DNA from: Escherichia coli
GTDB taxonomy: Bacteria > Pseudomonadota > Gammaproteobacteria > Enterobacterales > Enterobacteriaceae
Strand: one strand, 5' to 3'
DNA length: 64,000 nucleotides
Assembly (NCBI RefSeq): GCF_041248615.1
Contig: NZ_CP158425.1
The first letter of the stretch is position 1; each line of letters starts with the position of its first letter. Positions 36,001 through 42,000 of the stretch are shown one piece after another. Made by a program: the position numbers.

Positions 36001-39000
36001 TTTGGATCTATGTCCAATGTCGGCCAGACGTGGCCCTGATGATTCTTGCCCTTTGTACAGGAAGTGATTAAGTGTACTGAGCGTTCAGAGAACATTATCT
36101 TCCTTACATACCCATAGAACAGCTTTCTAAGAACGGTGGGCTCGCCTGAAAATTACAAATCAGCCCCTTTCACGGCATCATTTTGATTCTTCGCGTCTGC
36201 CCCCAGTAAGATGACCGGTTTTCTGCATGACAGTGTTATTCCTAACAAACGCAACACAAAACCACGCCAGCCAGAGCAAATTTTTTCATTTGCTGCGTAA
36301 AGCCTATTGTTTTCTCTTTTAAGCTTCGCCCACTCGTTACAGAGGGTAACATCATCAAGCGCTGTTATATGCTTCGCCTCACCTTCGACGATAACGGTAT
36401 GGATACCGTATGCTGTAAATCTCATACTATTTTCCAGAACCCAGTTGCGGTATTCGTCGAGTCCACCTTCGGAACCGGTAGCTCTGCGCCACATTTCAAT
36501 TTGCTTGTGTGATGGGTCAAGTGTACTTGTCATTGAAGCCTCGTCTCAGCGATAACGCTTGAAATAGCCCGCTTTGGTCATCATGAAATTAGCCATCTGA
36601 CTGGCGATTTGATTGTATCTTACTCATAGTGCCCTACCTATAGGTTAAAAAGGGGCATTTTCGCTTTATAGCGTGTTCAGCAGCATCAATCCTCCCAAGA
36701 AAGGCTGGCTTATTAAGCCGGTCCATCATTTTCTGTATATCTCTCATCAATTTTTATATCCGCCCTGGAGTGCACCGTTCAAGCACACCGATTAGGCAGA
36801 TAGTCACTAGTTAACTCTTTACTAGTGACTAAATTCCATTGATATACGTGACAACGTCACGTCATGAAAGCTTTTAAATGCCTATTTTTCATACAATGGG
36901 ATTTAATTAGGAGTAAATCCCATAGGCTTACATAAGGATGACAATTAAAAGCGTTAAATATCAACCAGATAGAATGATTACCCCCAATTAATGGGCTCAT
37001 CACATTATTTCACTGGCTGGGGTTATTGCTGGCATATCTGAAAGTGCTAATATGTTAGTCATTAGTAATTAGTAAAGCCTTTACTAAACGCGTTTCTACG
37101 TAAATTCTATAGGTTTTATAGGGTCCTACCTTTGCTCAAATCAAAATGTTCTGACATACCAAAATGGAGTGTAAAATGACTCAAAACCAGGGTTCTGAGC
37201 CAGTACCGGCGAGCCGGACAGGGCAGCTCATCAGCGCCCGGGATATGGCCATGCAGAAATTCGAAGAAGGGATGCGGTTAATCTCGGAAGCGTCGGAACT
37301 GTGCGGTCTCTCTCTCTTCACCAGCAGAATTATGCAGCCCAACGCATTTGGTCTTCCGTCGTCACTGGATCGCACCATCGAGGAGGGGCGTAAGGAAATT
37401 GACCGTAAAACGTGGAAAAGGCTCTTTGAAGAAACAGGTATGGACCGGTACTGGAACCATAAGCAAAAAGAAGCCTTTAACGAATCCCTTCGTACGGATC
37501 CGCCCGTCGCTTCCCTGGAGATTGTTAAGGGAACATTACAGCATGCACTGGCTAACAGACGAGACACCCTTGCAGAAGGTTTCGTTGATGTTCTCAACAA
37601 GCTTGACCGAAGTTTCAAAAGCAATGCCAGGCAATATACAATGCCAAAAAAGCTTGTTCTTCGGGGGATTTTTCCTGGTGTGAACGTGCTGAGGTACAAC
37701 GGTTTCTCGCAGGACAATCACTTTTGTTTACGCGACTTTGAGAATATTGTATGCATCTGTTCTGATACTCCAACACCTGCAACCGGCGGTGGGCTGAGTA
37801 TGGTCGACAGGCTGACGGCCATGAGAAATACAGAATTCACAGGCGAGGTCAGTGATGAGAATGGCTGGCGGTGTCGCCTGTTTGAGAATGGAAACGTTCA
37901 TATTTGCATCGACAGTATCTCGCTTCTGAATGCTCTGAACGATCTTATCAGCATATATTTTGCAAACCAGCTTCCGGCCGCAGGAAAAAAATGATGATTG
38001 AAAATGATAAAGAAAAAAGCCTGAACGATGCTACCCCGCCAGAGGTGCAGAATGACATCCGCAGCGAATCCACTGAAAAATCAAAGGAAATGGGTCGTTC
38101 AAGGTACTCATCTATCGCGATGATCGATTACTTCAATGCAATCGAACGTCTGTGCAAAGAGAAAGAAATTAACCCGGAAAATATCGATCTGAGCTTCAAA
38201 GTTCACTGGCTCAGAAACGCTGTTGGCGGCTCGTTTGCAAGGTCACAGGAGATGTTCGCGGAGTACCAGAAGTATGTTAAAGAGGTTCCTGAAGAGGCCC
38301 GTTACCTGGATATACCCGATGAGGTAAAGGTTGCACTCGGCGATATTATCTCGTACATCACCTGGCACTACCGTAGAAGCTATACCGCAATACAGAATGA
38401 TAGTGTTAAAAAAGCTGAAGCACGTAGCATGCAGCTGGAGGAGGAGGTAACGCAGCTGTTACAGCGGCTTGAGCAAAGCGCTACCGATATGGATGAGCTG
38501 AAACTTGAGAATCAGGCACTACAGGGTCGATTAGAGATCCGGGACAGTACCGTCAAGGAGTTAGAAACAAGGCTGAATGTTGCCGAAGCAGAACTCGAAA
38601 CCTGCCATCACCAGTTAGATAGCACACGGCATGAATTGAGCCTCGCACAGCAGTCAAATGACTCACTCTCCCAGCAACTGGCTGAACGTAAAACAGAGAT
38701 CGCTGGTCACCTTGAATATCAAAAAAAGCTGAACGAAGAGATCAACACGCAGCGTTCTGATAACGCCGGTCTTTCCAGACAATGCGACCAGTTAAGTCAG
38801 ACTGTGTCAGATACAAAGGCAGAGAGGGACAGGTTTGAACAGGAATTGATTGCTGCACAGAACCTTTGTACTGAGCTGAAAAGTGCACTGTCCGGGAAAG
38901 AGGGTGACCTGGTGGCGGTGAATGCCGAGCTTACTGAACTCCATAAACTAAACGAGTCGCTGAGCGCCGACCTGAATAAAGTAACTTTGGTCAGCCAGGG

Positions 39001-42000
39001 CTATGAAGCGGAAGTGGCTGAACAAAGCAATGAACTCAAAACGCTCCAGGCCAAAGTAATGAAGCTGGAAGCTACCCTGGAGGCGGAGAAAACAATCTCA
39101 GAATCCCTAAAAGGCACCATTGATACATTAACTGGTGCAATGGCAGGGGGAGGTACTGGAAAGTCAAAACAGCCGCGTAGCAGAAAAACATCATGATAAA
39201 TGAAGCCAGGTTGATACACTTCTCTGCATCCCCTGGCACATAAGAACTTCTGCGGACATTCAGCCCGTCCGCAGGAGTTTTCGTCCTTCAGTCAACAAAT
39301 GCACTACCTTTTTTGAGTCTCCACTTTCCAGAGCAGAAAACACGTTACCGATTCTACCAACAGCTTGTATCTGAGTGATAACCCCAGTCTTGTAATCATC
39401 TAGGATCCCTGACAGGAAAGCGTTCAGTTTTGTCTGTTCGCTTAGCGAAAGCATGTAGGACATTTTTTCTCCATTTTAAGCAGGTGTGTCAGTTGAAAGA
39501 GGTTTGCGTGATTCTGGAAAATGAGGCAGCACCATAGTTTCAGATGCTGTGGTCGCATCCCAGTGCCACCATCCATAAGGCCCATATTCACGGTTGTAAT
39601 AATCTTTTTTGAGTTGCTTTCGGGCCAGATAAGCAGGAGTGGCCATACCAAATACTTCCATCGGGAACGGCTTATCGCTTTTTGTGTCGAGCAGGTAGAA
39701 GTCAGGGAACACCTCACTAATACTCGCATCATAACGCATGGGCTTAACGTACTGCCGGTGCTCTGCATCCAGCTTTTCTGCAACAACCGCCTCATAGGAG
39801 GAGTCCAGAGGTATCCAGTTCTCGCTAACGTGCATCAGCACAATTTGATGAGCTCTTACAGAAGGGCCTCTGCCGGTTACCGCAGCTGGTGACGTCAACG
39901 CAAAGACAACTATTTTCGCCCCGGATTTCCATGCTGCGTACTCCGATGAAAATCGTTTCTTTACGCTATCCCAATGGACTTCTGAATTGAAAAAAATCAG
40001 CGGTAGCCCCCCAAAATTCCGCAGGGGTAAAAATTTAAGTGGCTTCTCATGCTTTTCAGCATCGTAGCGAGGTAAAACTGACAGGAGCATGAGACGTTTA
40101 TCACTCATCGCCTGTGATGAAAGACGCTGAATTTGCGACTGAGCGACAGGTTGTTTCGGGTCAGGTACACCAATGAATAAATGGTCACCTATGCAGGCTC
40201 TGCCGGTACGAATTTGTTTAGCGGTTTCAAGCAGACGATACCGTACCAGTGAATCGTTACGTTTCCCTGCCATTTTCGGGTACCAGACATTCAGACCAGA
40301 CTCTGTCCACAAAAGACTAAGCAAGCCCAGGAGGGTCATTGAGGCCTGACCTCCTTCTGGTCGCTGAACATGGGGCAGGGGAGGCACTTCTGATTTTTCA
40401 GGAGGATCTTTCTCTGTCATACCGATACCGAGCCTTACAGCCATATCACCTTCGGTTGTAATCCGGACCACACCACTCGCATATCCTTTCAGGCCGGTAT
40501 GCCGGGCATCAAGGGAGAAGAATACACAGGAAGGATCATGCTCAATGCCCGTGTTAGCGGCTTTGACGAGAATAAAGGCATCACCGTTCGGTAAAGCACG
40601 AACATAAAGTCGCTTTTCTCCTTTTCCACGACATCCGCAGGTGATGACTGATTTTTGACCTGAGGTGTGGTGTGCCTTTTTAAGAGCCGACTGCCACCCT
40701 TTAGCAAACTCATCCTGCGTTTGAAAGTCAGGTGAATACCTTTTGACGTTTGGATCGTCGTCGTAAGCAATCATCACTGCGAATTTTTGGCTCATAGTAG
40801 TCTCCTAAACAGGAAGTTTAATATCCCAACCAGAGCAACACTTCCTGAGCGTCATACTGTTCCTTTACGCCCATGTCGCTAAAGAATTCTTCGAAATCTG
40901 TTTCGGGAACGCAATGCCTGGACAGTTCTTGTAATGCTCGTTCTTTAGATACCGTCTCACCTTCAGCTGATTCGAAATACGTCATGGTTGACCTCTGACA
41001 TTATTACAACAATCTTAAGCATTTAAATTGATGAAGGAGCTCAGGTCAGCTGACTTCGTCGTAAAACTGCCGCAAGCGCTGGGAGGCTGCAAATTCAATT
41101 CGTGACTTCAGCAGTTTGGCGACGGCCGCAAAGACATCAACGACCACGGAGTTCCCAAACTGTCTGTAAGCCTGTGTATTGGACACAGGGATACGGAAAA
41201 CACTTTCCCCGGGTTTATCGAAGCCCATTAGCCTGCTGCATTCACGTGGCGTTAGCATGCGTGGCCGACGGTCCATGTTGTATGTGTTATGGAAATCAGT
41301 TTCTCCCAGTTCATGAGACCAACCCCGATCAATAAGAATTTCAGATCCGTCTTTCATATAGCGGCTTGAGAGGGTTCTGGTGACACTATTAACATTGGAA
41401 GGATCTACTAGTCCAAAACCAAAACCATTGCCTTTTGCCGCATGTTTCTTTGCATAGTTGTATAAGTACTCCCAGAGTTTAGGGGAGAGGATGTATTTAC
41501 TATCTACGCTCGGATCCAGTAAATCTGAGAGAGAAGGGCGCTTGTCCGGATAAAAGTCTTTAATGTCTCTCAGAGTAAAACCGTCTTTCAGACGTAGGTC
41601 GCGGCGAAAACCAATAAGGACGATACGTTCACGGTGCTGGGGTCGGAAATGACGGCCATCGATGACTTTAGGATCATCCGCGCCCGTGCTTTCGCTGTTT
41701 GCGACGTCGTAGCCAAGCTCATCGAGCGTTTTCATGATGATGTTAAAGGTATTACCCTTATCGTGACTCTTCAGATTTTTTACGTTTTCCAGAACAAAAA
41801 TTGCAGGTTGTTTTGCCCGGATGATCCTGGCCACATCAAAGAAGAGCGTACCCTGAGTGTCGCACTCGAAACCGTGTTTGCGACCCATAGAGTTCTTTTT
41901 ACTGACACCGGCGATGCTGAATGGCTGGCATGGAAATCCCGCAAGAAGAACATCATGATCCGGGATAGAGGCATCGATAAATTTGTATGCCTCGTCATCA

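Follow-up and report, generated by a model that had tools for sequence, protein, structure and literature searches.

A conserved IncHI backbone operon encoding a DUF4942 protein and a possible TlpA/KfrA-type coiled-coil regulator

KfrA-type proteins are described as autoregulators in which a globular head at the N-terminus precedes a long coiled-coil tail. They are described from the IncP-1 plasmids R751 and RK2 and the IncU plasmid RA3, where kfrA adjoins the korA-incC-korB partition operon, has kfrB and kfrC downstream, and is controlled through an operator in its own promoter. KfrA proteins polymerise on operator DNA, contact the partition proteins IncC and KorB, and affect plasmid stability in a host-dependent manner. 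TlpA, the 371-residue product of PSLT048 on the Salmonella virulence plasmid pSLT, is a thermosensing autorepressor that is related to KfrA and acts as a reversible coiled-coil thermometer (PMC2676509). Here we describe a pair of overlapping open reading frames, ORF1 and ORF2, in the contig NZ_CP158425.1 of Escherichia coli, of which a stretch of 64,000 nucleotides (hereafter the window) was analysed. The window is IncHI2 plasmid backbone, and hundreds of IncHI2 plasmids from Salmonella, E. coli and Enterobacter match the 2.4-kb segment that carries the pair at 100% identity, the same DNA being present in 1176 plasmids of PLSDB. Our preferred reading, to which we assign a probability of roughly 0.5, is that the pair forms a conserved operon of the IncHI backbone, the products of which are a DUF4942 protein and a DNA-binding coiled-coil regulator of divergent TlpA/KfrA type, with candidate operators upstream.

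The two genes encode proteins of 272 and 401 residues and occupy 37176-39196, precisely as placed by an earlier note made on this sequence, and the tetranucleotide ATGA at 37991-37994 is common to the 3′ end of ORF1 and the start of ORF2. A Shine-Dalgarno sequence, GGAG, lies at 37166-37169, 7 nt 5′ of the ORF1 start (an alternative in-frame ATG is present at 37164), and AGGA is found within the 3′ end of ORF1, ahead of the ORF2 start. This co-oriented and tightly abutted arrangement is compatible with the coupled translation proposed in that note. A GC-rich hairpin parts ORF2 from a convergent gene, and ORF1 is preceded by an AT-rich intergenic region of 620 bp (35-40% GC); the pair is therefore a two-gene operon. 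In the RefSeq plasmid pSE08-00436-1, which is 100% identical, exactly these two coding sequences are annotated, as a 'DUF4942 domain-containing protein' and a 'hypothetical protein'.

The ORF2 coiled-coil protein compared with TlpA and KfrA

Alignment of the ORF2 family divides the protein into a variable N-terminus (residues 1-36) that is probably disordered, a conserved head (about 37-135), a divergent rod (136-385) and a conserved C-terminal motif, EATLxAEKTIxxSLKGTIxxLT, which is followed by a Gly-rich linker and a basic tip. The head is the most conserved part of the family; AlphaFold2 (AF2) places helices at residues 41-57, 65-77, 82-98 and 110-134 with a predicted local distance difference test score (pLDDT) of about 70, and a further helix begins at residue 137 with a pLDDT of about 90. 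The rod has no Pro, contains 14.8% Leu and 14.0% Glu, and shows a 3.5-residue hydrophobic periodicity with a power of 4.57, compared with 0.17 +/- 0.17 in 2000 shuffles; occupancy of the a and d positions is 0.64 versus 0.52. It is a genuine coiled coil, and the long coil attributed to the second protein in the earlier note is thus borne out. The ORF2 tail reads KSKQPRSRKTS, and the tips of its homologues are of the K/R-K-K-T-T type (...KKTT, ...KKT-like and ...SRKTS).

Searches of ORF2 against Pfam, NCBIfam, PADLOC, PHROGs and the Protein Data Bank (PDB) return coiled-coil noise alone (FPP, crescentin, SMC, JetC, LmuB and lamin). The gene carries the GenBank product names 'ATP/GTP-binding protein' and 'chromosome partition protein Smc', and an SMC-like or other ATP-driven coiled-coil machine, also suggested in the earlier note, would match these labels. 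It would also account for the matches to NCBIfam SMC_prok_B (E 7e-12) and to PADLOC JetC and LmuB, and for the string AGGGTGKS at residues 383-390, which fits the PROSITE-like P-loop pattern [AG]-x4-G-K-[ST]. The matches are, however, coil to coil only, covering positions 678-923 of the 1181 in the model (the arm) at 43.9 bits with a cut-off of 567 (about 8%). ORF2 has no Walker B, signature or hinge regions and no ATPase heads, Pfam and NCBIfam detect no nucleoside triphosphatase (NTPase) domain in either ORF1 or ORF2, and at 401 residues the protein is a third of the length of SMC proteins (>1100). The AGGGTGKS string itself is part of the disordered tail, and the homologues from IncHI1, Photorhabdus and Enterobacter do not have it. 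ORF2 does share a long heptad-rich alpha-helical segment with SMC, MukB and JetC, but the similarity is compositional, and as far as sequence can show an SMC-like function is refuted; we consider it extremely improbable. The label 'ATP/GTP-binding protein' is due to the AGGGTGKS string, and the two GenBank names together seem to rest on this chance P-loop-like string and on similarity between coils.

The nearest analogues of ORF2 are TlpA and KfrA. In a single BLASTP comparison, residues 74-180 of ORF2 align with residues 30-140 of pSLT TlpA (E 0.003; 26% identity over 112 residues), and the motifs LRNxVGG, EYQ and (I/L)PxEV are identical in the two. TlpA is in turn a clear member of KfrA_N (PF11740; E 5.6e-17, 62.9 bits). 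Comparison by hhalign of the ORF2-head family with an alignment of 11 KfrA heads built here gave an E-value of 0.073 and a probability of 0.8%, in a register that superimposes NP, an invariant Arg (R75/R28), GSF, Y92/W46 and an invariant Pro (P109/P62); hhalign of the ORF2 head with R751 KfrA alone was negative. In a local database that combined 1544 decoy ORFs with the targets, the hidden Markov model (HMM) of the ORF2 head placed KfrA heads top among non-family sequences, with TlpA seventh, and the KfrA-head HMM placed ORF2-family proteins first after KfrA and TlpA. The ORF2 and KfrA/TlpA families are mutual best non-self profile matches, at E-values of 0.04-0.8. Three independent weak signals (hhalign, BLASTP and profile ranking) agree on one register, and they suggest a distant homology of ORF2 to TlpA and KfrA that is probable but unproven. 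The ORF2 homologue of the IncHI1 plasmid R27, R0158, was named 'tlpA, regulator' in the original R27 annotation, which fits the description of TlpA as related to KfrA (PMC2676509).

The likenesses extend to the overall plan of the proteins. ORF2 and TlpA are both plasmid-encoded and of similar size, with an N-terminal head that carries the LRNxVGG...EYQ...(I/L)PxEV series ahead of a long coil. ORF2 differs from TlpA in having an extra N-terminal extension of about 35 residues, predicted to be disordered, and an insertion of about 7 residues ahead of the LR motif, and in being the second gene after a DUF4942 gene, whereas tlpA has no adjoining co-oriented DUF4942 gene; the promoter of pSLT tlpA also shows no operator or palindromes of the TAGT type. 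With KfrA, ORF2 has in common a globular helical head, a coil of about 250 residues and a basic C-terminal tip; R751 KfrA ends in ...GGRKKT and a positive tip is described for RA3 KfrA. The KfrA coil, however, is rich in Ala whereas that of ORF2 is rich in Leu, Glu, Gln and Ser, and the sequence similarity of the two proteins is not significant by standard thresholds. The genetic settings are also different, as ORF2 follows a DUF4942 gene, is far from par genes, and has neither kfrB or kfrC nor par genes among its neighbours (DUF6884, H-NS, DUF1173, Dcm and SNase genes).

By comparison with these proteins, the helical head of ORF2 would be a helix-turn-helix (HTH)-like DNA-binding domain, and the rod of about 250 residues would form a parallel dimeric coiled coil that places two heads, while the basic tip may add contacts to DNA or to a partner.

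Candidate operators upstream of the operon

The 620-bp intergenic region was examined by phylogenetic footprinting of six loci whose proteins are 32-69% identical (alignment A4), and conservation across these loci extends to three palindromes and to the promoter block (Table 1). The distal element, an inverted pair of 13-mers, is kept in Photorhabdus, in a chromosomal E. coli copy and in Enterobacter ECC445; the window contains four copies of the 13-mer motif TAGTNAYTAGTWA, against 0.43 expected, and every one of them falls within this intergenic region. The perfect palindrome is exact in eight loci, representing IncHI2, IncHI1 (including R27-type plasmids and pHCM1) and Photorhabdus; it is degenerate in ECC445, and in L008, the most divergent locus, a different palindrome occupies the same place. 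The proximal element is the best-conserved non-coding block in the alignment. The putative promoter that it adjoins is proposed from the sequence, and a consensus scan did not call it; in its -10 region TGCTAAT is kept in IncHI1, with a TGATA-type variant in the other lineages. L008 also has a different putative recognition helix in the head (GGRIHNATTA versus GGSFARSQEM), and its palindromes differ at equivalent positions, although this co-variation is a single, anecdotal case.

Table 1. Features of the ORF1-ORF2 locus. Positions are those of the window unless another locus is named.
Feature	Coordinates	Strand	Description
ORF1	37176..37994	+	272-aa DUF4942 protein; ATG 37176, TGA 37992-37994
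ORF2	37991..39196	+	401-aa coiled-coil protein, probably of TlpA/KfrA type; homologue of R27 R0158 'tlpA'
ORF2 head	38099..38395	+	aa ~37-135; predicted all-helical, with helix-GGS-helix (HTH-like) core; VHWLRNAVGGSFARSQEMFAEYQ
ORF2 coiled-coil rod	38396..39145	+	aa ~136-385; from heptad periodicity and composition
ORF2 Gly-rich linker and basic tip	39146..39193	+	GGGTGKSKQPRSRKTS; holds the chance P-loop-like AGGGTGKS
Distal operator-like element	36801..36831	.	inverted 13-mer pair TAGTCACTAGT(T/A)A: 36801-36813 (+), 36819-36831 (-)
Palindrome ACGTGAC-N3-GTCACGT	36846..36862	.	GTCAC core invariant in six-locus alignment A4
Perfect palindrome	36896..36923	.	ATGGGATTTA-N8-TAAATCCCAT; 0 expected by chance
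Putative sigma-70 promoter of operon	37026..37053	+	-35 TTGCTG, 16-nt spacer, extended -10 TGCTAATAT
Proximal operator-like element	37056..37087	.	just 3′ of putative -10; two overlapping copies of TAGTNAYTAGTAA: 37056-37068, 37063-37075
Proximal palindrome	37069..37087	.	TTAGTAAAG-C-CTTTACTAA; part of proximal operator-like element
GC-rich hairpin	39250..39274	.	between convergent ORF2 and 67-aa gene; likely bidirectional terminator
DUF4942 pseudogene copies	L004:6086-6901; L015:1555-2369; L028 (R27) 145,705-146,520 approx.		

The distal element, the perfect palindrome and the proximal element are likely to be operators through which a dimeric DNA-binding protein controls the pair. By the precedent of TlpA and KfrA this protein would be ORF2, which most likely binds sequence-specifically to the conserved repeats and palindromes; the candidate sites form two clusters, one right after the putative -10 and the other about 250 bp upstream, and an operator in its own promoter, as in KfrA, is what would be expected of ORF2. 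Such binding would result in autoregulation of the operon, and perhaps also in control of the divergent DUF6884 operon. This operon (35430-36533, leftwards) consists of a 126-aa ORF, the DUF6884 protein and a 151-aa putative lipoprotein, and has the same conserved regulatory region as the pair. A plasmid-borne H-NS paralogue of 134 aa, the counterpart of R27 R0164 (hns), is encoded 3 kb upstream (33735-34139, leftwards), and the regulatory region of the pair, being AT-rich (35-40% GC), would be a plausible target of H-NS.

Expression data are available for the R27 homologues. R0158 (tlpA) is well expressed on microarrays, with 2355 units at 25 °C and 3819 at 37 °C, and R0158, R0159 and R0160 are all transcribed and are 1.6-, 2.7- and 2.7-fold up at 37 °C relative to 25 °C (PMC7366339 Table S3). 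R0159 and R0160, which by their position between R0158 and the intergenic region would be two DUF4942 fragments, have the identical fold change of 2.66 (PMC7366339 Table S3), which fits co-transcription. The rise at 37 °C fits the relief of a TlpA-like repressor at higher temperature, in keeping with the behaviour of TlpA as a thermometer. R0161-R0163, the counterparts of the divergent operon, are about 2-fold up at 37 °C (PMC7366339 Table S3) and 2-4.8-fold lower in the derepressed plasmid drR27 at 37 °C (PMC7366339 Table S4).

Several observations count against the assignment of ORF2 to the TlpA/KfrA regulators and of the upstream elements to ORF2. The ORF2 head falls below the Pfam gathering threshold for KfrA_N, and among 13 ORF2-family members just one reaches an E-value of 0.052 with the coil included, and none does so once the coil is trimmed; profile searches, which the earlier note had recommended, identify ORF1 as DUF4942 but give for ORF2 no KfrA_N match at the gathering score, a threshold that TlpA passes. 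The hhalign probabilities are below 1%, and the BLASTP alignment to TlpA runs partly into the coiled coil. The upstream elements could instead serve the divergent operon, or be the sites of a different regulator, for example the plasmid H-NS. Finally, the induction of the R27 genes at 37 °C is modest and is common to about 35 other R27 genes (PMC7366339).

The stability of the coil may render binding by ORF2 temperature-dependent, as in TlpA and KfrA. Temperature-sensitive transfer is a hallmark of IncHI plasmids, and one can envisage that ORF2 is a protein thermometer of these plasmids whose coil melts at about 25-37 °C and frees the operators. Temperature would thereby govern a small regulon comprising the ORF1-ORF2 operon, the DUF6884 operon and perhaps others, and the DUF4942 protein would be a DNA-recognition partner, derived from a methyltransferase, that the R27 lineage has lost. 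We regard this specific scenario as a long shot.

The earlier note had likened ORF2 to plasmid partition or segregation coiled-coil proteins, and insofar as KfrA, one of its two nearest analogues, is linked to segregation, the resemblance holds. A role as an accessory of segregation or positioning has been proposed for KfrA; in the same way ORF2, partnered by ORF1, would form filaments or bridges that help to position a large plasmid of low copy number. This reading would draw on the shared architecture and on the known contacts of KfrA with partition proteins, and the pair of operator-like clusters, spaced by about 250 bp, could seed complexes of higher order. The repeats nevertheless sit in a promoter region and do not form a centromere-like array, and there are no par genes or NTPase within about 15 kb. 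A deletion scan of R27 bears on the same question. Del14 (144,480-150,565) is among the 18 deletions obtained (PMC4853401); it starts at the end of the coiled-coil gene (R27 144,482-145,702) and removes R0158-R0165, including the homologous pair. In E. coli MG1655 a strong loss of stability was seen only with Del16 (incC), and Del14 had no marked defect (PMC4853401), which counts against an important partition role under those conditions. Loss of stability upon deletion, the assay by which the earlier note would have judged its own proposal, was thus not marked for the IncHI1 homologue. As the DUF4942 gene of R27 is already a pseudogene, Del14 says nothing on an intact pair. A segregation accessory is, on balance, unlikely, and we prefer to view ORF2 as a candidate autoregulator of the TlpA/KfrA type.

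The DUF4942 protein and conservation of the pair

Although described in the earlier note simply as an unknown protein, ORF1 is by its profile match an unambiguous DUF4942 protein. It scores 92.9 bits against PF13708 (cut-off 25), with residues 73-261 aligned to positions 2-187 of the 190 in the model, and ends 11 residues past the match. The invariant residues of the family, W80, G135, D187, H242 and N255 together with the N238-G239-N240 turn, are all kept. A beta-beta-alpha-metal (HNH-like) reading of the invariant NGNxH...N motif was considered and is not claimed here. The structure model of ORF1 is confident and has no solved structural relative, and ORF1 has no match among PDB sequences. 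An exhaustive HMMER scan recovered 583 representative clusters of DUF4942 proteins in two architectures: a stand-alone form of about 250-290 aa and a form of about 450-600 aa (fused relatives, 447-602) in which DUF4942 is N-terminal to an S-adenosylmethionine (SAM)-dependent methyltransferase that matches MTS or N6_Mtase and has the consensus VMNPPF. The fusion is found in about half of the family. The invariant residues are identical in the stand-alone and fused forms, so that the function of the DUF4942 domain is presumably common to both. ORF1 matches the model along its full length and, as with other stand-alone members, is found among mobile-element DNA-transaction genes, but in contrast to the 450-520-aa fusions it lacks the C-terminal NPPF methyltransferase domain.

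The literature yielded no functional paper on DUF4942 or on the ORF1-ORF2 pair. The family corresponds to L0010 of LEE/SRL-type islands, part of a YeeU/YeeV-type island module, and phage homologues exist. The best functional clue to DUF4942 is that it is repeatedly fused to DNA amino-methyltransferases and resides in neighbourhoods of mobile-element DNA-transaction genes. Since DUF4942 is elsewhere the N-terminal module of NPPF amino-methyltransferases, ORF1 most likely handles DNA without methylating it, and we propose that it is a co-translated accessory protein, most likely active in DNA recognition or binding. The possibility that DUF4942 works in trans with an adjacent methyltransferase was considered and rejected, as the nearby Dcm is a complete C5 enzyme encoded on the opposite strand, and other DUF4942 contexts are without any methyltransferase.

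Homologues of the pair were collected from IncHI1 plasmids, a chromosomal E. coli copy, Photorhabdus tasmaniensis, Enterobacter ECC445 and two metagenomic contigs. ORF1 homologues are 55-92% identical with the gene order kept, and a DUF4942 gene always stands ahead of the ORF2 homologues (29-81% identity), in the same synteny. Nei-Gojobori ratios of nonsynonymous to synonymous substitution (dN/dS) are 0.08-0.13 for ORF1 and 0.21-0.24 for the whole of ORF2 (head, 0.12-0.21; coil, 0.25-0.27); both are real genes under purifying selection. The junction takes two forms. The ATGA overlap is present in IncHI2 and Enterobacter ECC445, and in Photorhabdus too when the start is taken at the in-frame ATG L002:7977, a choice that gives back the MM(S/T)(D/E)N start of the family; in IncHI1 and L008 the stop codon is followed by 2 nt and the ATG. 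The ORF2 family is very small, the homologue search giving nine clusters, and the head alone as a query finds close relatives or fragments and nothing else.

Conservation as a pair, which the earlier note took as a measure of its proposal, holds within the IncHI-type lineages but is not general. Coiled-coil pairing of DUF4942 is seen only in the IncHI-type lineages examined, with none in two more distant plasmid contexts, and distant stand-alone DUF4942 genes (30-33% identity) on other large plasmids have no coiled-coil neighbour. Moreover, codon 152 of the DUF4942 gene is changed from CAG to a TAG nonsense codon in R27, pHCM1 and p13QT31-1 with ORF2 intact; this was established by translation in p13QT31-1 and pHCM1, and in R27 by a 100% match of a 61-mer and the lack of an annotated DUF4942 coding sequence. 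The 61-mer with TAG has a 100% match in 204 of the 282 IncHI1-type plasmids of PLSDB, and among the records listed the nonsense lineage has the coiled-coil coding sequence alone annotated. The DUF4942 gene is apparently intact in 57 pKPC_CAV1374-like records and in 18 records of a 94%-identity group. DUF4942 is thus dispensable for ORF2, and because it occurs without the coiled-coil gene and is a pseudogene in most IncHI1 plasmids, where the coiled-coil gene is intact, an obligatory pairing of ORF1 with ORF2 is doubtful.

A fragment of the pair is also found outside the IncHI plasmids. In a plasmid of Klebsiella pneumoniae MGH 39 with an IncHI-unrelated MOBF backbone (L006, 6129-7345), an IncHI1A segment containing an intact DUF4942 gene and a coiled-coil gene that IS26 cuts off after ~130 codons lies between a Tn3-family transposase gene and IS26. 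It is the footprint of recombination with an IncHI1 plasmid.

Plasmid context and implications

In pSE08-00436-1 the pair is flanked by the H-NS gene and by a convergent block (a small ORF, DUF1173 and a Dcm methylase) that is followed by a thermonuclease gene, with the ter operon and a HipA toxin-antitoxin module further upstream. In the window, the DUF1173 gene adjoins that of a full-length Dcm-type C5 methyltransferase (39476-40795 and 41046-42515, both leftwards), with small ORFs at 39260-39463 (leftwards). DUF1173 is a predicted PD-(D/E)XK nuclease (PMC3045609), and the DUF1173 and Dcm genes, which are kept beside the pair in all IncHI-type loci, may constitute a restriction-modification-like or anti-restriction unit. 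A secreted thermonuclease-family gene and an overlapping 326-aa ORF follow at 42649-44102 (rightwards), and in the IncHI1 loci a PLD-family gene lies just past the thermonuclease region, such that several nuclease-type genes cluster round the pair. On the other side, a UvrD-like helicase (679 aa) has a 4-nt overlap with an upstream 334-aa Cys-rich protein (31173-32177) within 29137-32177 (leftwards), with HNH-motif genes flanking; these two genes are another conserved co-translated pair.

These neighbours lend themselves to a different explanation, namely that the pair belongs to an establishment or anti-defence module within a DNA-transaction island (DUF4942, the DUF1173 nuclease-like protein, Dcm methylase, thermonuclease, PLD and H-NS) that protects or conditions incoming plasmid DNA, with DUF4942 as a methyltransferase-derived binder or decoy. 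The methyltransferase fusions with their shared invariant residues, the nuclease prediction for DUF1173, and the phage and island-module homologues of DUF4942 are all consistent with this, as is the presence of DUF1173 and SNase genes (loci L011-L013) and of PLD, H-NS and PsiA genes near stand-alone DUF4942 genes on unrelated large plasmids that have no coiled-coil gene. PADLOC, however, gives no match for ORF1 and coil noise alone for ORF2, the very successful R27/pHCM1 lineage has DUF4942 as a pseudogene, and the idea offers nothing specific on ORF2. We consider an anti-defence role improbable, and favour the operon with its candidate TlpA/KfrA-type autoregulator.

IncHI1 and IncHI2 plasmids rank among the major vehicles of multidrug, mcr and carbapenemase resistance, and some two thirds of the genes in their backbone are without an assigned function. 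The comparisons made here correct the misleading database labels 'ATP/GTP-binding protein' and 'Smc' and reveal the loss of DUF4942 in the R27/pHCM1 lineage. Without a link to temperature the finding is an ordinary one; if such a link is true, the H-NS/Hha and HtdA/TrhR/TrhY circuitry of IncHI plasmids would gain a protein thermosensor. In either case, the tentative assignment of the pair to a known type of regulator, with its likely operators marked, provides a testable handle on a conserved operon of the IncHI backbone.

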